Notes under the pieces: model-generated
Told to the model about the DNA's origin: nothing
Seen by the model: only the letters and a program-made list of their open reading frames with translations
The model's database searches: none
Translations under genes and position numbers: made by a program
Source: Escherichia phage FS2B
Sequence record: MW929183.1
Direction: 5' to 3' (one strand)
DNA length: 18,619 nt
Part shown: in pieces, positions 2,945 to 16,957 of the stretch
Layout of the letters: every line of letters starts with the position of its first letter
How positions within the stretch are numbered: the first letter of the stretch is position 1

Positions 2945-3457
2945 TTAAGCAGGTGTTACACCAGTAAAAGTGCATGTTGCATTGATGGACGGGTCAGCTG
3001 TCAAACTTGCTTGAACAGTAACTTCGCCACTTGCAGCAGCATCTAATTTTAACGAATTATTAGCGCTTATTGTACCAGCTTCTACGGGAGTTACAACAAG
3101 TGTGTAATCATCAGCAACAGAATTGGTTACAGTAAACATGGTGTTGAAGTTAGTGGTAGTACCACCTACTTTACCTGTAATTGGCCCACGACTCACAATA
3201 GTAGGAGCAGGAGCAACAATTTCAGAAATGGTTGCTGTACCAGAAACACCTTCTAAAGTTGCAGTAATGGATACATCAGTGGATTGAGACGCACTCGGAG
3301 CAGTATACAAACCCGACTGAGTGATAGAACCACCTCCTGTCACTGACCAAGTAAAGCCAGTTGTTTCGGTAGAACCATCACTTTTCTCCGCGCTTGCAGT
3401 GAACTGCCGAGTAGCCCCTGTCTCTAGACTTGCTAAAGACGCAGGGCTAACAGTCAC
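2945..3457 (-). CDS. Ig-like domain ORF (T/S/G/A/V-rich, beta-rich), probably expressed as a C-terminal extension of the major capsid protein by -1 frameshifting rather than independently
   Basis: Track ORF begins at GTG 3457 with no SD and no ATG. Its reading frame stays open upstream to 3548, overlapping the last ~26 capsid codons in the -1 frame. Composition resembles bacterial Ig-like decoration domains. Confidence 0.6.
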   Translation of the reverse strand: MTVSPASLASLETGATRQFTASAEKSDGSTETTGFTWSVTGGGSITQSGLYTAPSASQSTDVSITATLEGVSGTATISEIVAPAPTIVSRGPITGKVGGTTTNFNTMFTVTNSVADDYTLVVTPVEAGTISANNSLKLDAAASGEVTVQASLTADPSINATCTFTGVTPA

Positions 3458-3468
3458 ACTGTCTACTG

Positions 3469-4527
3469 TTACGCCGCCACCTTTCCCGCAGCAGTGAACA
3501 GAACGCCGGAAGCGTACGGGTTGCGGTGACGCAGACCAACTTCCATTTCAATCATCCACTTCTCGTAAGAACCGTCTTTAGCCAGTTCAGTACGTTTCGG
3601 AGCACGCAGAACCATCTGAGTCCAGTCAGCGCTACGGAAGAAGTAAACTGCATCGGTAGGCATCCAACGGTTAACGATGATTTTGTAGCTCTGGCCCAGC
3701 GGGTCAGTGATGCTATTAACTTCGTAGATGAACTGCTTGGTGTTCTCAAAGATACGCTTACGTGAACCCTGAGTATTTTCTTGCAGACCAGCAAAGATCT
3801 TAGCATGAGCCGGGTTAATCATGATGATATCTGCTTCAGAACCAGCGGTATACAGTTGCAGAGTCATATCAAAGATATCAGCTTCGTCGAAACCAATGTT
3901 AGTGGTCGGGTTAGAAGCATTCTGTGCAACTTTAACAGTTACTGCACCAGTATCCGGGTCAGCAGGACCATTCTTGGTCTTGTCAACAACGCCACCAGCC
4001 AGACCACCGTGAGCACACAGGAACTGGAATGCACCAGTCTTACGAGCTGCATGGGTGTCATTCAGACCAACAACAGCAGGATCAGTTGCAGAGTTAGTCA
4101 GGTACTGGTCAGCCAGAACGTCGGTACGAGCCTGACCGGACAGAAGGATTTTCTCGAGGTCACGCTTGATCTCTTTACCTTTCTTCTCCAGCTGATACAT
4201 CAGTTCACGACCACGACCGTAGTTAGCGGTGGTGTTAGCAGTATCAGAAACACGAACAACCTTACGCAGAATCTGAGTAACGTTAGATTTGATAACAGTC
4301 GGTTTCATTTCGCCGTCTTCAGCACGAGAGCCTTCGACGTGTGCGTTATTACCGTCAACGCTTGCCAGTGCATCGGTCTGCCAGCTAAAGATAGTCTGGT
4401 TAATAGACTCTTTACCGGTCATAGATACGAACGGGGTATCCTGAGGGGACAGAACAGAAATCCAGTTAGCAAAAGAAAGTTTTTTACCATTCTGGTCATA
4501 CGATACAAATAAAGTTGGATTAGCCAT
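3469..4527 (-). CDS. Major capsid protein, 352 aa
   Basis: ORF directly after the scaffolding gene in the terminase-portal-scaffold-capsid order. ATG 4527, AGGAG ~10 nt upstream, stop TAA at 3469-3471. Size suits an HK97-fold coat protein. Assignment is by synteny and size, not a homology search. Confidence 0.75.
   Translation of the reverse strand: MANPTLFVSYDQNGKKLSFANWISVLSPQDTPFVSMTGKESINQTIFSWQTDALASVDGNNAHVEGSRAEDGEMKPTVIKSNVTQILRKVVRVSDTANTTANYGRGRELMYQLEKKGKEIKRDLEKILLSGQARTDVLADQYLTNSATDPAVVGLNDTHAARKTGAFQFLCAHGGLAGGVVDKTKNGPADPDTGAVTVKVAQNASNPTTNIGFDEADIFDMTLQLYTAGSEADIIMINPAHAKIFAGLQENTQGSRKRIFENTKQFIYEVNSITDPLGQSYKIIVNRWMPTDAVYFFRSADWTQMVLRAPKRTELAKDGSYEKWMIEMEVGLRHRNPYASGVLFTAAGKVAA
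3481..3487 (-). other. Candidate -1 programmed ribosomal frameshift site G GGA AAG in the capsid frame
   Basis: Capsid zero-frame codons GCG GGA AAG GTG GCG GCG TAA. The heptamer GGGAAAG fits X XXY YYZ and matches the slippery sequence used for lambda G/GT. A possible hairpin (AACAGT...ACTGTT, or ACAGT-GUG-ACUGU) starts ~9 nt downstream. Confidence 0.5.
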
Positions 4528-4568
4528 GTTATGTTAGCTCCTATACTATTAATAATTTAATTTGTCGA

Positions 4569-5645
4569 TTAATCTACGAGGAATTTGAATGCGTCTTCGT
4601 GACTAACGCGACCCTCTGCGAATGCCTTGGCAACCTTAGCGTTGTCGGGCTTATTGGAAGTGCGAGACTTTGCAGCATCAGACTTCACAACCTTGCGTGG
4701 AGCACCGGGACGTTTAATCTTAGCCATCACCTGTTGCTTACCTTTATCAAATTGGTATGCTTTATGGAGAGCTAGGAAAATAGACGGACGGTTTTCCTTC
4801 AATACTTCTTCTTCAGTAGCACCTAAGTCAATTGCGTATTGCATTAAGTTTTGATATAAGTTTTCATCCCAATTTGGAATCTCACGTTTCAGAATATTAA
4901 CACATTCAATACTCTTGGCTTGGAAAGCTTCCTGCTCTTTAGCTGCTGCTTCCTGCTTAATACGGACCTGAGCCTGTTCAAGCTGTTGACGGCGAGCTGT
5001 GTACTTCTCTAGGAAACGTTTGTTTTCAACATATGCTTGAGGATCTTCTACTGCAAGCTTGTCCCAATCAAAACCGTTATAATCTTCAATTACTCGGTCT
5101 GCTTCTAAAGACGCTAGTTCTAATACATCCTTCAAACCTACTACACGTTCCTCGAATGCTTCCATATGACGCTGAAGAGTTGATTCTCGTTCTGTCATAT
5201 CAGCACCAGTAAGATAGCCATTAGAAAGTTCTTCAATAGTCATCTCACGTCCATCAGGAAGGGTGATAACGGTTTCGTAGTCTACATCAAAGACTTCACC
5301 TTCACCGTCAGCAGAATCATCTTCATACTCTGCATCGCTTGAATCTTCTTCCTCTTGTTCTTCTGCTTCAGAGGATTCGTCTTCATCTTCTTCGACTTCG
5401 CCTTCCTCTTCACGATCTTCCCAACCATCTTCATCTTCGAACTTAAGCTCATCGCTTTCACCGAGAAGGTCGGTATCAAAGTCGAAATCGTCACCGTCTT
5501 TTTCCGGGAACTCATCGTCAATGTCCACTTCTGGTTCTTGTTCAGATTCTAATCGACCGAGTTCTTCTTTGAAAGAACCTTTCAGGTCATCCAGTTGGAG
5601 GAAAGATTTAAAATCGTTCGGGTCAATATAATTATCTTGTGGCAT
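4569..5645 (-). CDS. Scaffolding protein, 358 aa
   Basis: Very acidic low-complexity N-terminal half (runs of E/D) and helical, coiled-coil-like C-terminal half, positioned between portal and capsid genes. ATG 5645 overlaps the upstream stop by 1 nt (TAATG). Confidence 0.65.
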   Translation of the reverse strand: MPQDNYIDPNDFKSFLQLDDLKGSFKEELGRLESEQEPEVDIDDEFPEKDGDDFDFDTDLLGESDELKFEDEDGWEDREEEGEVEEDEDESSEAEEQEEEDSSDAEYEDDSADGEGEVFDVDYETVITLPDGREMTIEELSNGYLTGADMTERESTLQRHMEAFEERVVGLKDVLELASLEADRVIEDYNGFDWDKLAVEDPQAYVENKRFLEKYTARRQQLEQAQVRIKQEAAAKEQEAFQAKSIECVNILKREIPNWDENLYQNLMQYAIDLGATEEEVLKENRPSIFLALHKAYQFDKGKQQVMAKIKRPGAPRKVVKSDAAKSRTSNKPDNAKVAKAFAEGRVSHEDAFKFLVD

Positions 5646-11441: not shown

Positions 11442-12088
11442 CATGTGCTGTGTTTAAGCTTTCCACATTTACTACATCTCCAAGTGGACTTATAAAGGGT
11501 GTGAACTCTTTCATCCCCGTAAGCTTTGCGTATCCGATAGTACTCATGATCACATTTGAATTGCTTAATGATTAACTTAATTTTCCACATAAGTTCTCTT
11601 TCAACCTTATATATAAGAGTTTAAAATTCTGATTTGACCGAGTGGGGCTAGCCGCTCGCCGCGCGTTTCCTAAAAAGGGGGAGTCCTCATTTAAAAAAGG
11701 GTTATTGGCAATGCCTTTACCTTCCCTTTCAACGTTCCACCTTTCCCCGTGCCTACTCCCCGTAGTTATTCCCCCGTGTATACTACCCAATACATTACCT
11801 ACCCGTTTATTTAGTTCCCCTTTAAAGAGTGAGAGAAAGGCCAGCACTGTATAATGATTAGATTAAGGCACTATGAATAGGCTAATAATACCCATAAGTA
11901 ATAGCCCACATTCCCCATAGTTACGTTGATAATAGTTTCAATAGTAATGATTATGAGTGCAATAATGATATATGTATTAATTAAGTGGAAAGATAGTAAT
12001 TAACAGTTATTATATTCTTTTATTACTTTCTTTTTTCAGCGTACATGAGCGTAGCGAATGGTCTTTGATGTTTGAGTAATGCTATTAA

Positions 12089-12117
12089 TAGTTAACTAAT
12101 TATTTAAGTGGTATATT
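12089..12117 (+). promoter_or_regulatory. Candidate sigma70 promoter with extended -10 (TGgTATATT), possibly driving the rightward early operon
   Basis: TG at 12109-12110, hexamer TATATT at 12112-12117, weak -35 TAGTTA 17 bp upstream. The -35 is weak and the first gene is ~360 nt downstream. Confidence 0.3.
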
Positions 12118-12481
12118 ATTACCGCACTATCTTGCTATGTTTCCCCGTGGTCTATCCTGCGGTTGTATGCTCCCCGTCCTATATAGATAGTAGAAATATT
12201 TTACCCGTAGGACTTGCTTTCCTTATTAAGAAGTAGTAAATTGTATTCATCGAAGCGAAGCAGTGATGCAAAGTAGCTAGATAGTAGTAAGCTCTCTGAA
12301 GACTAATCGGTCTAAGTAAGTGAGAATGTTTAAAGATAAGGACTCTGCGATTGACTGGTGAAAGCTGGAACACTATCGAGTCAGTGAAGAGGCCAACTGA
12401 GCAATGGCCCTACGTGTGAATCAGAAACACGTGCTATCTTGTGAAACATGAAACCAAATACATATCAACGAGGATTCACAA

Positions 12482-12998: not shown

Positions 12999-13265
12999 AT
13001 GGCTATCAAAGAAGTTAAGTTATCAAACGGCTTTTCTTGTTTTGTTGGTGGGCAATCTATCGAGTTTAATACACTTGATGGTCAGATAATCTTGCCTGTT
13101 ATCACTTTTTGCAGGATGGAATATCAGCCTCTTAAAGATTGGCTAGCCTTTGCTGATTTCGAAATTACCCGCGATGATTTCAGATCAATCTATATTGACG
13201 GTGATTTGTCGCTGGCTAACCTGCTTAATCATGGTCTGATTGGGGATGATACCAATGGGAAATGA
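12999..13265 (+). CDS. Hypothetical protein, 88 aa
   Basis: ATG 12999 with SD AGGAG at 7 nt spacing. Confidence 0.6.
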   Translation: MAIKEVKLSNGFSCFVGGQSIEFNTLDGQIILPVITFCRMEYQPLKDWLAFADFEITRDDFRSIYIDGDLSLANLLNHGLIGDDTNGK

Positions 13266-13611: not shown

Positions 13612-13977
13612 ATGGGTGTTATCAAGTTTGTAGTGAAAGTATTTGTAGGCTTCTTTCTGGTTGTTCTCCTGTTAGGTGTCCTGCTGTCATCTATGGGTAG
13701 CGTTAAGGCTGCAACATTTTCCCCTGATACGGTTGACGGTTTACAGTGCACCTATTTGATAGAAAACTATGAAACTGGTAAAAAGTCACCTAAAGTTATT
13801 ATTTTACATGTGAATGATTTCGAACATGTACAATCATACGATAAAACTATTCAACTGGTAAATGAAACCACTGGTAAGCAAATTACGGTGGATCACTTGA
13901 TGCGCTCATCGTTGACGCTCTTTGATGAGTCCATGAATGAAATGGCATCCGGTAACGGTCAATGTGTAAATCCATAG
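13612..13977 (+). CDS. Membrane-anchored or secreted protein, 121 aa
   Basis: ATG 13612 with SD AAAGG upstream. N-terminal hydrophobic segment FVVKVFVGFFLVVLLLGVLL. Two Cys in the C-terminal domain. Confidence 0.65.
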   Translation: MGVIKFVVKVFVGFFLVVLLLGVLLSSMGSVKAATFSPDTVDGLQCTYLIENYETGKKSPKVIILHVNDFEHVQSYDKTIQLVNETTGKQITVDHLMRSSLTLFDESMNEMASGNGQCVNP

Positions 13978-14052
13978 GCTTAATCTTTCTCCTGTATTGT
14001 GCCGTAGTCATGCCTATGGTCATAATTTATCTGATTCTCTAATCCTTCCTGT

Positions 14053-14080
14053 AAGCCTCCTAGTGAGGCTTTTCTCTTTT
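14053..14080 (+). terminator. Rho-independent terminator ending the 12482-13977 operon
   Basis: Perfect 7-bp stem AAGCCUC / GAGGCUU with loop CUAGU, followed by UUCUCUUUU. Confidence 0.7.
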
Positions 14081-14361
14081 ATGAGGTGATTGTATGCCTT
14101 ACTCCCTTTTAGCTCGTTGTGATGCGTTTTAGGCCGCTAAATATCGCTTTACAAGCCATTTTCTATGATGTATCGCGTGCGCCTGCTCTTTTACCTTCCT
14201 ATAGTGAAAAAGTTTAAAATAATTTGCTTTACCCTATTGCAACCTCATCTGATTAGCGTATACTTCATTTCATCGGGTACGATGTAAAACATACAAGGCA
14301 AGAAATTGCCCCGCTCTTTAAAAATCAGGCTAGAAAGTGAAAATATTCTCAAAAAAGAGTA

Positions 14362-14390
14362 TTGACACCGGAAAAAGCCTGATATATAGT
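14362..14390 (+). promoter_or_regulatory. Strong sigma70-type promoter P1: TTGACA, 17 bp spacer, TATAGT, with A-rich upstream element
   Basis: TTGACA at 14362-14367, TATAGT at 14385-14390, spacer exactly 17 bp. A-tract (aaaaaagag) immediately upstream, UP-element-like. Confidence 0.65.
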
Positions 14391-14994
14391 GAGCATAGTC
14401 AGCGATGACTTAAAAAATCCCGCTCTTTAAAAATATGATTTGTCTTACGGGTGGCGGCGACGTCATTACTATAAGGCGCTCAGTTAATCGGTAGAATTGA
14501 TTCCTGATTCATACGTGACGCAGGCGGACAATAAGCAATATCAATAAGCCTTATTTGTTCGATACTTTCAAAAGATTAATGCTTGAAAGCGCACTAGATT
14601 CCCTGAAAGACAAATCAGACTTATCATCTTGCCCTTTCGCATAGATTCACGCGAGATAAGGGAAAGGAATTAAAAGAAGATGATAAAAAGAGTTGCAAAC
14701 GTGGTTAAAGTAGTCCATACTAACCACAAGTTAGCAAAACATCGCTAACTAGTTCCCAAATCAACGTATCGCGGGAAAGGTGGCACATAGTGCAGCGATT
14801 AGTTCAGGTGTAGGCGGCCTGTTAATGAATCAGTAAGCCTTCAATGTGACAGTGATTAGCAGACACTTTAAAAGGCTAAACGCTCTTTAACAATATGAGT
14901 CATAAGTTAAGCCTCACCGCTTAATCTTCAATCAAATAAAGCTGATTGATATATCCTCCCAATAGCGGGAACGACGAAAAAGATTAAAAAGCGG

Positions 14995-15023
14995 TTGACA
15001 GCGAAAACAACATGATTCATAAT
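14995..15023 (+). promoter_or_regulatory. Strong sigma70-type promoter P2: TTGACA, 17 bp spacer, CATAAT; paralogous to P1
   Basis: TTGACA at 14995-15000, CATAAT at 15018-15023. A-rich upstream (aaaaagattaaaaag). Both P1 and P2 are followed by GAGCA just after the -10. Confidence 0.65.
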
Positions 15024-15946
15024 GAGCACTCACTAAGCAAATCATCGCTTCAGTGAAAAGCGTAACAACGGCTAACAGTTGCATAGTGTGAGAAAGCACA
15101 CTGATAGATTTACCGCTCTTTAATAATTTAAACATTCTCCTATATCGGTTGAATATGCTTGATGATAATAACCATCGGAAAGCATACCAGATAAAACGGC
15201 GTAAAACTCCCTAAATTATCAGGGTAAACAGTTTTACATTCCCTTACTGGAAACGTCACCATTGATAAACGGATTCATTGAGTACACGCAAAGACTTGAG
15301 CTAATCGCCCACGGTTAAGGGTAGCGGCGGTCATTGCTAACACGGTGCTACAGTGAAAGAAGTTAATCAGGGTAGGCAAGTCCGACGAATTAACGCTCAA
15401 TTGAGAGCGGCGGGGAGTGGTTAAAAAGTGGCAAATTGCTATTTAACAATAAGGTTTAATGCGAACGTTTACGATGTGAACGGCTTGAGATTCATCATAG
15501 GATGAAAGTACATAGCCGGGTTATGTAGTAAACCTGCTGAAAGATATAAAACGCCGGAATATTAGGCGGTTAGTGACTCTTTCGCAATAGTATCCCGTAG
15601 TGGGCGATGACTAGCGATAGAGAGCTGATACAAAAGGATAAGCGGGAGCGAAAACAAAGTAGACGATATTGCCGACGGTTACAATAACGTAACTAATTAG
15701 AGTCGGACGCACTGCCTTATTGTGATGATTGATCATCGCTATCAGGTCGGCTTCGTTTATAGCGACTAATTAAAGATACCAGATGAAACATCACGGATAA
15801 GGGGGCGGCAAGGTTAACTCCTGATAAGACCGCCCCGCTTACCTATAACTACTTAACAACGAGTGGTTATAGTTAAGTTAATAGTGACTTAAACAAGCTC
15901 ATAGAGAGCGGGGCAATAGCGCCCTTACAATTGAAAGGTGAATATT

Positions 15947-16846
15947 ATGGCTAAAATCTTTACTCTGGTTAACGAATCCGGTTTTAATGCTCTGGCTAAC
16001 AACATTCGCAGTAATAACGCGGCGATCAAACAAGATGTTTCTAACTTCCTGTTAGGTCATTTGCAGCACTTTCGTAGCAACGGTAAGAAGTTAGATGTAT
16101 TGCAGGCGGCGGTTGACTTCCTGTTAACCGAACGTTTCCGCGATATGGATGTTATTGCCACCGCGATTACTTTCTTAACTCCTATCAAGTTTAACACCGA
16201 TGCGGCAAATGGTCGTAAAAAGTGGATTAATCTGGAAGGTGAGGCGAAAGCTAAAGAAGATGCGAAAGAAGCGCAAATTAAGGCCAAAATGGAACAAAAC
16301 CGCGCTCGCTGGTCAAACGCTTTCGAAAACTTTGCATTAGGTCGTGCAATTGAAGTGGATAATCCTAACTTCTACAAAGGTTGCAATGACAACGTGGCGG
16401 CACACCTGCAAATTCCGGCGAAAAACAAGGAAGATTTTAATCAGGATATTTACGCTTTGGTTGAACGCTTGAATGCAATCCGTATTGAAGCCAAATTACT
16501 GGCTGATGAGCGCAACGGCGCAACCAGCGATAACACTATCGCCCTGAGTGAAGAAGTTGGGAAGGTTAAAAAGTCCTTTGATTCACTCATCAAGAAAATC
16601 ACGGCCTCGACGGTAGCGATCTCGGATGATTATCTGATGAACGCATCAAGCAAGGAATTAGAATCACTCGATTCATACGCTGATGAAATGGAAAAGACTG
16701 TTGCAGCTATGCAGGAGAAGTTAGAAAGTCTGCGCGGTCGTATCTCTTCAACGGTTGCTACCCGTAGCGAACAAGCGGCGAAAGCAGAAGAGGAAGAAGT
16801 ATTGCGTAAAGCGGCTGAAATTATGGCGGCACGTCAAGCGGCATAA
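15947..16846 (+). CDS. Hypothetical protein, 299 aa, largely helical with coiled-coil-like C-terminus
   Basis: Track ORF starts at GTG 15938, but ATG 15947 has SD AAGGTG at 6 nt spacing. K/E/A-rich helical sequence. No recognisable catalytic motif. Confidence 0.7.
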   Translation: MAKIFTLVNESGFNALANNIRSNNAAIKQDVSNFLLGHLQHFRSNGKKLDVLQAAVDFLLTERFRDMDVIATAITFLTPIKFNTDAANGRKKWINLEGEAKAKEDAKEAQIKAKMEQNRARWSNAFENFALGRAIEVDNPNFYKGCNDNVAAHLQIPAKNKEDFNQDIYALVERLNAIRIEAKLLADERNGATSDNTIALSEEVGKVKKSFDSLIKKITASTVAISDDYLMNASSKELESLDSYADEMEKTVAAMQEKLESLRGRISSTVATRSEQAAKAEEEEVLRKAAEIMAARQAA

Positions 16847-16870
16847 GTAAGACAATTTAAATAAACATAA

Positions 16871-16903
16871 GGCGCTATCTTAACGGGTAGCGCCTTTTCT
16901 TTT
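16871..16903 (+). terminator. Rho-independent terminator after the 299-aa gene
   Basis: Stem GGCGCUA / UAGCGCC with 10-nt loop, followed by UUUUCUUUUAUC. Confidence 0.65.
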
Positions 16904-16957
16904 ATCAGTGCATTGATTCAGTGCATTAATCAAAGAATCTAATTAAAGGTGACGATC

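Follow-up and report, generated by a model that had tools for sequence, protein, structure and literature searches.

We analyzed 18,619 nt of Escherichia phage FS2B (MW929183.1; this whole stretch is referred to as the window), focusing on positions 13978–15946, a gap of about 2 kb between the genes for gp125 and gp124. We conclude that this gap is probably an early transcription unit of the host RNA polymerase (RNAP) that is organized like a ribosomal RNA (rRNA) operon (rrn), and whose main products would be structured RNAs made by a Nus-modified, Rho-resistant polymerase. The gap does not code for protein, it carries conserved consensus boxA sites, and its downstream part, which forms the leader of gp124, is under purifying selection and has a secondary structure of about 0.9 kb that covaries among relatives. 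The coordinates of all features are collected in Table 1.

A conserved non-coding gap in Kuraviruses

We classified the window as Kuravirus (phiEco32-like phages of ~77 kb, Gordonclarkvirinae) because the 2.7-kb region around the gap matched 97 phage records, with phiEc_1 as the best match (99%) and with phiEco32, SU10, KBNP1711, ECBP2, NJ01 and the BASEL phages Bas86–94 among the others. The gap corresponds to the spacer between genes 125 and 124 of phiEco32 and was kept in all 97–98 related records, so it is not particular to FS2B. No coding sequence is annotated in this spacer in phiEco32, which bears no annotation there at all, or in SU10, where a terminator alone is marked.

A preliminary description of this DNA, made from its letters alone, had remarked that no credible open reading frame (ORF) occupies 13978–15946, and the ORF listing bore this out, with none above 67 aa. 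It had also considered that ordinary genes might be hidden there, and we found neither a conserved ORF nor codon periodicity. In the 3′ 1.1 kb, none of nine ORFs of at least 25 aa was intact in every relative of a 19-sequence alignment, the majority being frameshifted, and variable sites were spread flatly over the three phases (137/142/134, n = 413). In the 5′ 1.05 kb, the corresponding counts were 70/71/70, no ORF was intact across all five colinear relatives, and none had a Shine-Dalgarno (SD) sequence. The leader is nevertheless under purifying selection and is better conserved than the synonymous sites of the adjoining gene: its identity to the window was 0.75–0.98, compared with 0.60–0.86 at the third codon positions of gp124, and in Bas88 the two values were 0.875 and 0.595, respectively. 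At 0.37–0.43, the GC content of the gap was like that of the remaining window, with no compositional shift. We detected no tRNA or transfer-messenger RNA (tmRNA) in the window, and a sensitive blastn search of 5,426 E. coli genomes gave no host or prophage similarity, the sole overlap being a boxA of ~12 nt.

A large three-domain RNA upstream of gp124

Alignments were built using MAFFT with nhmmer, and consensus folds were computed using RNAalifold. One alignment held 19 distinct Gordonclarkvirinae sequences over 15024–15950, from promoter P2 to the gp124 ATG (72–98% identity, nearly gapless), while another, of 25 sequences, added distant lineages in which the flanking protein falls to 47% identity. 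The 19-sequence fold comprised 247 pairs in 43 helices over the ~920 nt from P2 to gp124, with 99.0% of cells paired, compared with 93.6% after column shuffling and 34–47% when pairing partners were slid. It contained 78 compensatory pairs, whereas shuffled alignments gave 34.5 ± 3.5 (0 of 500 reached 78) and slid ones 8–14, and its covariation score was 0.237 (0.03–0.06 slid). For the 25-sequence alignment, 110 of the 145 consensus pairs were compensatory (64.6 ± 4.2 shuffled, 0 of 500; 39–54 slid), 94.7% of cells were paired (78.5% shuffled, 38–48% slid), and the covariation score reached 0.497 (0.09–0.12 slid). The helices that close the domains, which are invariant within Kuravirus, covaried in this broader alignment, including that of domain D1 (helices 2–3). 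Because these structures were scored on their own source alignments, we ran an out-of-sample test in which the Kuravirus-only structure (225 mappable pairs) was placed on nine distant sequences; 70.8% of cells were paired, compared with 36–44% slid, and 450 paired cells had both bases unlike those of the window, compared with 180–242 slid. Folding the single sequence gave −284.5 kcal/mol (−227.8 ± 9.3 shuffled, z = −6.1) and recovered the consensus helices.

The preliminary description had listed a structured non-coding RNA among several options, had proposed compensatory changes in relatives as its test, and had counted a lack of covariation against it; we found such changes in both alignments, in the out-of-sample sequences and in the separate element M1 described below. 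The GGCGG-rich patches to which it drew attention were also real, and are strands of covarying helices, as in GGGGGCGG/CCGCCCC at 15802–15836. The RNA folds into three domains, D1 to D3, of which D3 ends just before the ribosome-binding site. Its composition has G in excess of C (23.3% and 18.6%), and it is highly structured. In phage LAMP, ~60 nt of D2 (the helix 27–28 region, alignment columns 543–625) are replaced by ~95 nt of unrelated sequence, with the other parts of the RNA conserved; this natural variant could reveal the dispensable parts of D2.

The RNA is not GOLLD, ROOL, HEARO or OMEGA, families that had been suggested beforehand, because no Rfam family matched: a scan with the covariance models of Rfam 15 left the gap without a match at a permissive E ≤ 1, and six related loci scanned at the gathering threshold likewise gave nothing, the families covered including OLE, group I/II introns, RNase P, tmRNA and 6S. 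We found no prior description of this ~0.9-kb folded RNA, which is absent from Rfam 15, and no paper linking Kuravirus or phiEco32 with boxA or non-coding RNA.

The gp124 gene is the only ORF of the proposed unit. Searches for its function were uninformative, with no Pfam family, a PHROG of unknown function, and no informative Foldseek match in PDB or BFVD. An AlphaFold2 model of gp124 was mostly helical (predicted local distance difference test score 73.5).

Consensus boxA sites and promoters

We searched for the gamma-proteobacterial boxA consensus of NusB/NusE, GYTCTTTAANA (Baniulyte et al., 2017; PMC5725501), and found five exact matches in the window, compared with 0.20 expected. Four of these, which the preliminary description had overlooked, lie in the gap on the plus strand, starting at 14313, 14422, 14882 and 15115 (boxA #1 to #4). 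The sequence CGCTCTTTAAnAAT occurred four times (0.06 expected), and CGCTCTTTAA[A/C/T]AAT was found at 14312, 14421, 14881 and 15114, all on the plus strand and inside the gap (0.06 expected). The position and sequence of the boxAs were kept in all relatives examined, with boxA #1 kept in those of the Kuravirus group, and the core GCTCTTTAA-AAT was invariant in 25 of 25 sequences, while the flanking stems changed completely.

A short stable hairpin precedes three of the four gap boxAs. Across boxAs, hairpins lay 1–12 nt upstream of most sites, with a mean ΔG of −7.6, compared with −5.2 for control 41-mers. The hairpin of boxA #1 has a ΔG of −11.8 and a GAAA loop and ends 2 nt from the boxA, and the GCGA-loop hairpin of boxA #2 was also present in NJ01 and Bas93. 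The hairpin of boxA #4 covaried: its loop region, GAGAAAGC, was invariant, and its stem (helix 5 of the 19-sequence alignment) occurred as AGTGTG/CACACT, AACGTG/CACGTT, GAAGTG/CACTTC, GAGGTG/CACCTC and GACGTG/CACGTC. Among the distant lineages, the stem before boxA was wholly different in sequence from one lineage to another.

The two sigma70 promoters of the preliminary description, here P1 and P2, were confirmed as the sole 11/12 matches in 5.5 kb, each with an A-rich upstream tract and followed by GAGCA. Promoter-like sites overall were not above chance (15, compared with 14.0 expected), and only these two near-consensus ones stood out. Both were kept in relatives, where they are multiplied to 2–4 copies. 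Within the Kuravirus group, P2 keeps a position of about −950 relative to the gp124 ATG (range −940 to −980); in the distant lineages, two excepted, its equivalent lies at about −980 to −1040. From the −10 hexamer, boxA #2 follows P1 at 32 nt and boxA #4 follows P2 at 92 nt, an arrangement that was the same in all lineages. In every relative examined, the gap consisted of modules in the order boxA, ~50 nt, near-consensus promoter, ~55–115 nt, boxA, amounting to 2–4 promoters and 4–5 consensus boxAs per genome. The 5′ part varied by whole modules, and the 3′ part was fixed relative to the gp124 ATG (boxA −1067, promoter −950, boxA −833). In SU7, EK010, NC-B, TH34 and Bas88, a TTGACA-16-TAGAAT promoter lies ~49 nt upstream of boxA #3. 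Sigma70 promoters were noted previously in the spacers of SU10 and phiEco32 (PMC4281155), so that part of the promoter cluster, at least, had been recognized before. The early genes of phiEco32 are transcribed by the host sigma70 holoenzyme, which is later shut off by gp79 (PMC12276001). We found no transcriptome of a Kuravirus infection in the literature; the RNA-seq of the NC101 paper was performed on a different phage, and the paper is silent on this region (PMC12803456).

Two further candidates were set aside. The boxA-like TGCTATTTAACAAT at 15437 has a single mismatch to the consensus and sits inside covarying helices, its pairing being supported by a compensatory C>U/G>A change in TH34, and it is probably structural rather than a fifth Nus site. 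A 16-nt inverted repeat (14305–14320/15902–15917, 94% complementary; ATTGCCCCGCTCTTTA/TAGAGAGCGGGGCAAT) matches the boxA #1 region with sequence 30 nt before the gp124 start. We weighed it as an rRNA-like processing stem but rejected it as a main feature, because its 3′ arm forms local hairpins in the consensus fold (helices 42–43) and its complementarity to boxA decays in the divergent clade. This 3′ arm is largely conserved, and an alternative pairing between boxA and the sequence before the SD is possible.

The M1 cassette

Upstream of the large RNA, 4 nt past boxA #2, begins a second structured RNA element, M1. Its consensus fold had 46 pairs, 12 of them compensatory (5.4 ± 1.6 shuffled, 0–2 slid), and 97.6% of cells were paired, compared with ~38% slid. 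M1 was present or absent as a unit, being full length in 10 of 18 relatives and cleanly missing from the other eight, and a diverged, boxA-flanked copy lies further upstream in TH34 and Bas88. It was also the sole part of the gap shared with PJNS034 (PP391266), an unclassified coliphage of 65.7 kb. The unannotated gap of that phage, ~1.8 kb (2999–4822 of its locus) between the packaging and early clusters, holds two boxAs on either side of the M1 homologue, consensus promoters, a 12/12 promoter and a leader of ~480 nt without homology to the Kuravirus RNA. Between M1 and boxA #3 lies a variable segment, M2. Its first ~70 nt occurred in every relative, and the other ~190 nt in phiEc_1, ECBP2, KBNP1711 and MN05 only, with a partial copy in TH34; this distal part resembles a second cassette.

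A proposed rrn-like transcription unit

In the mechanism that we propose, several near-consensus sigma70 promoters with UP-like tracts would fire upon DNA entry, and each transcript would carry a hairpin and then a consensus boxA within ~30–90 nt. The boxA would bring in host NusB/NusE(S10), along with NusA, NusG and SuhB, and RNAP so modified would cross ~1–1.6 kb of untranslated RNA without Rho-dependent termination. By a model proposed for 16S rRNA, the tethered boxA could also retain one strand of a long-range helix, the 5′ one, beside the RNA exit channel while the 3′ strand is still being made; boxA #2 abuts the 5′ strand of the M1 closing stem (partner ~170 nt on), and boxA #4 abuts that of the D1 closing helix (partner ~285 nt on). 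The products would be an M1 RNA of ~180 nt and a three-domain RNA of ~0.8–0.9 kb, the latter co-transcribed with gp124. The unit would span from the terminator at 14053 to that at 16869, include P1, P2 and a weak candidate promoter at 14237, and yield M1, the three-domain RNA and gp124 mRNA.

At rrn, boxA is necessary and sufficient for the antitermination complex, and a boxA-tether model explains the leader–trailer helix (PMC10250234). Nus factors assist rRNA in folding and are able to block Rho (PMC5725501); their main role at rRNA is now thought to be folding, with NusB-tethered boxA holding the leader strand for the trailer (PMC5725501; PMC10250234). boxA also shields long untranslated CRISPR transcripts from Rho (PMC7665894). 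The layout in FS2B fits roles in Rho protection and in folding alike, which leads us to view the locus as an rrn-like operon of a phage; because the leader is C-poor and structured, folding assistance may matter as much as Rho protection. Like the E. coli rrn leader, the gap has tandem strong sigma70 promoters with A-rich upstream tracts and a hairpin-then-boxA order just past the promoter, which is the order of rrn (boxB, boxA, boxC) and not that of lambda (PMC10250234). The phage boxA core is identical to that of rrn (GCTCTTTAACAA) or differs only at the N position of the consensus, and boxA is repeated ahead of successive structured RNA units, immediately 5′ of a long-range helix strand that encloses a folded domain of ~180–300 nt. 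The product, as read from the sequence, is likewise long, untranslated, richer in G than in C and highly structured. Unlike rrn, the unit is phage-encoded, its RNA is neither rRNA nor tRNA, and it ends in a protein gene, gp124.

We infer that the RNA has an activity of its own, perhaps together with gp124 or host proteins, and is not a passive leader; because it is large, has unpaired motifs that do not vary and is invariably linked to gp124, a function as RNA or ribonucleoprotein (RNP) is plausible. A further-reaching proposal, which we offer tentatively and with more doubt than confidence, is that the large ornate RNA (~0.9 kb, three domains) of Kuraviruses and their relatives represents a new class. 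It would be a functional and probably trans-acting RNA or RNP made by hijacking, through rrn-type boxB–boxA sites, the host machinery for rRNA transcription and folding (Nus, SuhB), and it may work with gp124 or host proteins in host takeover or anti-defence. The locus would then be a viral “pseudo-rRNA operon” with a mobile M1 that is exchanged between unrelated phages.

Distribution in distant lineages and other phages

Homologues of gp124 at 67–70% and 47–49% identity were found on Logan metagenome contigs, where no genes were called for 3.0–3.4 kb upstream. The order in these distant lineages was an A-rich tract, TTGACA-N16–18-(G/C)ATAAT, a hairpin, and a boxA at about −870 to −940, giving a leader of ~870–940 nt. 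Upstream of the first boxA or promoter, they had ~1.5–1.9 kb more without called genes or conserved ORFs of at least 45 aa (68–82% identical; contigs L028, 1954–3575; L029, 1982–3713; L031, 1934–3576; L033, 1562–3503; L036, 896–2517), and these extra stretches could hold further RNAs, genome ends or an origin.

Scans of viral contigs using the anchor protein, a boxA–promoter pattern and an M1 pattern returned only known Kuraviruses and Vibrio phage Vc1, and a metagenome scan using a D1/D2 motif pattern gave 21 matches, of which five were true and all of these Kuravirus-like. The large RNA is specific to the Gordonclarkvirinae-related group, including allied metagenomic lineages. Vc1 (KJ502657) is an unrelated T7-like phage in which four tandem TTGACA-type promoter–hairpin–boxA modules lie at 3560–4540 (for example, hairpin GTACCAACAAGGTAC and consensus boxA ACGCTCTTTAACAAT), preceding short early ORFs near an S-adenosylmethionine-hydrolase gene; an Rfam scan of this locus found nothing. 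Because of the Vc1 modules, rrn-type boxA may be commoner in the early regions of virulent phages than appreciated.

Points against the proposal and alternative explanations

Several points weigh against reading the gap as an rrn-like unit. The related sequences share ancestry, and the shuffle statistics therefore overstate significance, which the slid-partner and out-of-sample controls mitigate. The boxAs are assigned as NusB/NusE-type sites by consensus, position and conservation, and their binding and the Nus-dependent read-through are predicted, as are promoter activity and the ends, processing and abundance of the RNAs. Because no strong promoter lies directly upstream of boxA #1 and boxA #3 in FS2B, these two may be left over from modules that have decayed, or may function on read-through transcripts only. 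In an rrn leader, the GU-rich boxC lies about 18–19 nt downstream of boxA; after boxA #4, no such element was seen by eye, with no pattern search run, which is a further difference from rrn, and the leader strand of helix 7 begins right behind the boxA instead. The leader may, like rRNA, be an intrinsically poor Rho substrate, in which case antitermination may not be the main role of boxA. Lastly, RNAalifold paired CUUU of boxA #4 (15118–15121) with AAAG of the gp124 SD (15934–15937) in both alignments. These pairs are beyond a covariation test because they are invariant; through this predicted pairing, boxA #4 may be partly occluded or may have a translational role.

The same pairing could link Nus binding to gp124 translation, and so bears on the main rival explanation, which we consider unlikely but take seriously: that the folded RNA is a giant cis-acting 5′ leader that only controls the translation or stability of gp124, with no trans-acting RNA. 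A Nus/boxA loop, or the CUUU/AAAG pairs, would then repress translation until processing, as at lambda nutL-N and suhB, and boxA-mediated translational repression has been documented for suhB and lambda N across a structured gap of ~200 nt (PMC5725501). A gp124 homologue directly follows the RNA in every case, with no intervening terminator, and the last hairpins of the RNA end 9 nt before the SD. The long regulatory leader of the preliminary description may therefore also apply: gp124 has this RNA as its physical 5′ leader, and the option overlaps with that of a structured RNA. A purely cis-acting role is harder to reconcile with some 40 helices in three domains and many invariant loop and junction motifs; we know of no cis-regulator as complex as this. 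In addition, M1 is a separate cassette that adjoins no ORF and moves independently, occurring in PJNS034 without the large RNA, and the boxA–SD pairs (helix 6) lack covariation.

The covarying structure of ~0.9 kb and the stronger-than-synonymous conservation would be left unexplained if the array, with its strong promoters each followed by a high-affinity boxA, were a decoy that soaks up sigma70 holoenzyme, NusB/NusE and SuhB as infection begins and starves the host rRNA operons, with the downstream RNA secondary. The number of near-consensus promoters and boxAs per genome, which varies by whole modules, favors such a decoy, as does the fourfold recurrence of the module in the early region of Vc1, but what directly follows the Vc1 modules is ordinary short early ORFs, as would fit plain antitermination, and by our reasoning a few early phage copies are small beside seven highly transcribed rrn operons. 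We regard a decoy as improbable; the RNAP sink of the preliminary description likewise leaves the ~40 covarying helices unaccounted for. We think even less of a transcription-activated replication origin, in which the folded transcript would serve as a ColE1 RNA II-like preprimer or form an R-loop and the promoters would activate the origin. Strong promoters do feed a long, structured, untranslated, G-rich RNA here, RNA II is also a conserved folded RNA, and to our knowledge the replication origin of these phages is undefined. Nevertheless, the gap proved to lack iterons, tandem repeats, DnaA boxes and an AT-rich unwinding element, which speaks against the origin suggested earlier; strands of covarying RNA helices, not free G-runs, make up the G-rich patches; and the composition does not shift, the cumulative GC-skew minimum lying ~2.2 kb upstream, at the switch to divergent transcription near 11.6–11.8 kb. 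We give almost no credence to the absence of any real feature, whether as degenerate or mis-called coding (small ORFs, an alternative code, sequencing errors) or as a neutral promoter-bearing spacer for DNA entry and early transcription. Small hypothetical proteins have indeed been annotated here by some depositors (one each in MN05 and SU7, and as many as 10 in CHD5UKE1), but no ORF is conserved, frameshifting indels are frequent, the substitution phase is flat, and 97–98 independent genomes agree, with conservation above that of synonymous sites and strong covariation.

Other features of the window

The terminator that borders the unit on its 5′ side is annotated at the equivalent position in SU10 and SU7. 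In the early operon upstream of it, gp125 (13612–13977, 121 aa) and gp127 (12999–13265, 88 aa) match PHROGs labelled “terminase” and “polymerase”, and several GenBank records use these names; they are doubtful because of the small size of the proteins and their position in the early operon, and are probably propagated mis-annotations. Further upstream, ~630 nt at 11850–12480 are gene-free and AT-rich (GC down to 0.33), lie between the divergent late (minus-strand) and early (plus-strand) clusters, coincide with the cumulative GC-skew minimum and contain several 9/12 promoter-like sites. This stretch is probably a divergent control region and/or a genome-end region.

Table 1. Predicted features of the gap and its borders in the FS2B window.
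Feature	Position	Strand	Description
Intrinsic terminator of upstream early operon (genes 128–125)	14053..14081	+	Stem AAGCCTC/GAGGCTT and T-run; 5′ border of the unit
Weak candidate promoter	14237–14264	+	TTGCAA-16-TATACT, 9/12; sole promoter candidate preceding boxA #1
Hairpin and boxA #1	14297..14323	+	GGCAA-GAAA-TTGCC at 14297–14310, then GCTCTTTAAAA at 14313–14323; upstream of P1
Promoter P1	14362..14390	+	TTGACA-17-TATAGT, 11/12; A-rich UP-like tract; predicted start ~14395–14397 (GAGCA)
Hairpin and boxA #2	14397..14432	+	AGTCA-GCGA-TGACT at 14397–14410, 11-nt spacer, GCTCTTTAAAA at 14422–14432
M1 structured RNA cassette	14436..14617	+	181 nt; closing stem 14436–14446/14607–14617
M2 variable segment	14618..14880	+	Between M1 and boxA #3
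boxA #3	14882..14892	+	GCTCTTTAACA; no promoter directly upstream in FS2B
Promoter P2	14975..15023	+	UP-like tract 14975–14992; TTGACA-17-CATAAT at 14995–15023, 11/12; predicted start ~15028–15030
nut-like site in rrn order	15084..15125	+	boxB-like hairpin 15084–15103, 11-nt spacer, boxA #4 GCTCTTTAATA at 15115–15125
Domain D1	15127..15425	+	~300 nt; long-range closing helix 15127–15140/15411–15425, starting right after boxA #4; helices 7–20
Domain D2	15426..15737	+	~310 nt; hairpin 15426–15444, terminal hairpin 15724–15737; helices 21–35 (10–18 in 25-sequence set)
D2 long-range closing helix	15446–15455/15714–15723	+	Encloses nested long-range helices
Domain D3	15745..15925	+	Five covarying hairpins and two invariant (15782–15792, 15897–15909); helices 36–43 (19–25 in 25-sequence set)
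SD and gp124	15934..16846	+	SD AAAGGTG at 15934–15940; ATG at 15947; 299 aa
Strong intrinsic terminator closing the unit	16869..16906	+	12-bp stem with 6 GC pairs, T-run; annotated terminator in SU7

Comparison with known systems and significance

Apart from rrn, the closest parallels are found in phage and CRISPR transcripts. As at the lambdoid nut sites and nutL-N, an early phage transcript carries boxA beside a small hairpin with a purine-rich, GNRA-like loop, a structured leader lies between the nut site and the first gene, and processive antitermination of early transcription would be Nus-dependent. Unlike in lambda, the hairpin precedes boxA instead of following it as boxB, and FS2B, a virulent podophage, has a sigma factor of its own and a leader ~4x longer and far more structured. 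The nut boxAs of lambda are weaker variants, whereas those of FS2B have the full rrn-type consensus. No N homologue is known in FS2B-type phage, although no exhaustive search was made. Like boxA at CRISPR arrays, for which Rho protection has been proposed (PMC7665894), the FS2B sites mark where an unusually long stretch of untranslated RNA begins; the differences are one large folded RNA in place of repeat–spacer units, phage in place of host, and multiple promoter–boxA modules. As with the A1, A2 and A3 promoters of T7, several strong host-RNAP promoters of a virulent podophage are clustered where its early region begins. The T7 early promoters are followed shortly by coding genes, whereas those of FS2B are followed by ~0.9–1.6 kb of structured non-coding RNA, with a boxA per promoter; the T7-like Vc1 has the promoter–hairpin–boxA modules but not the large RNA. 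GOLLD and ROOL are phage-associated. The RNA of FS2B resembles them, OLE and raiA (PMC12286853) in its size class (several hundred to ~900 nt), its many covarying helices, its multiple domains and its highly conserved unpaired motifs, and differs from them in its lack of an Rfam match, its E. coli host, its place as the early-region 5′ part of an mRNA, its boxA sites and its narrow distribution. On our best reading, the locus combines a large ornate non-coding RNA with boxA/Nus antitermination in a virulent coliphage.

Few large and intricately folded non-coding RNAs occur in bacteria and phages, and for most of those known (GOLLD, ROOL, OLE) the source organisms are difficult to work with experimentally. 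Coliphages of the phiEco32 type infect E. coli, including K-12, sit in phage-therapy and reference collections, and have a transcription program that has been studied experimentally; because this host–phage pair is tractable, genetics, structure probing, cryo-EM and Nus/Rho mutants are directly applicable. In about 100 deposited genomes, the 2-kb region is unannotated or mis-annotated, and it should read as non-coding RNA and regulatory sites. An rrn-like operon in a virulent phage would extend boxA/Nus biology beyond its known contexts in rRNA, lambdoid nut, suhB and CRISPR arrays, and would provide a natural test of the Nus complex as a co-transcriptional chaperone for long-range RNA helices.

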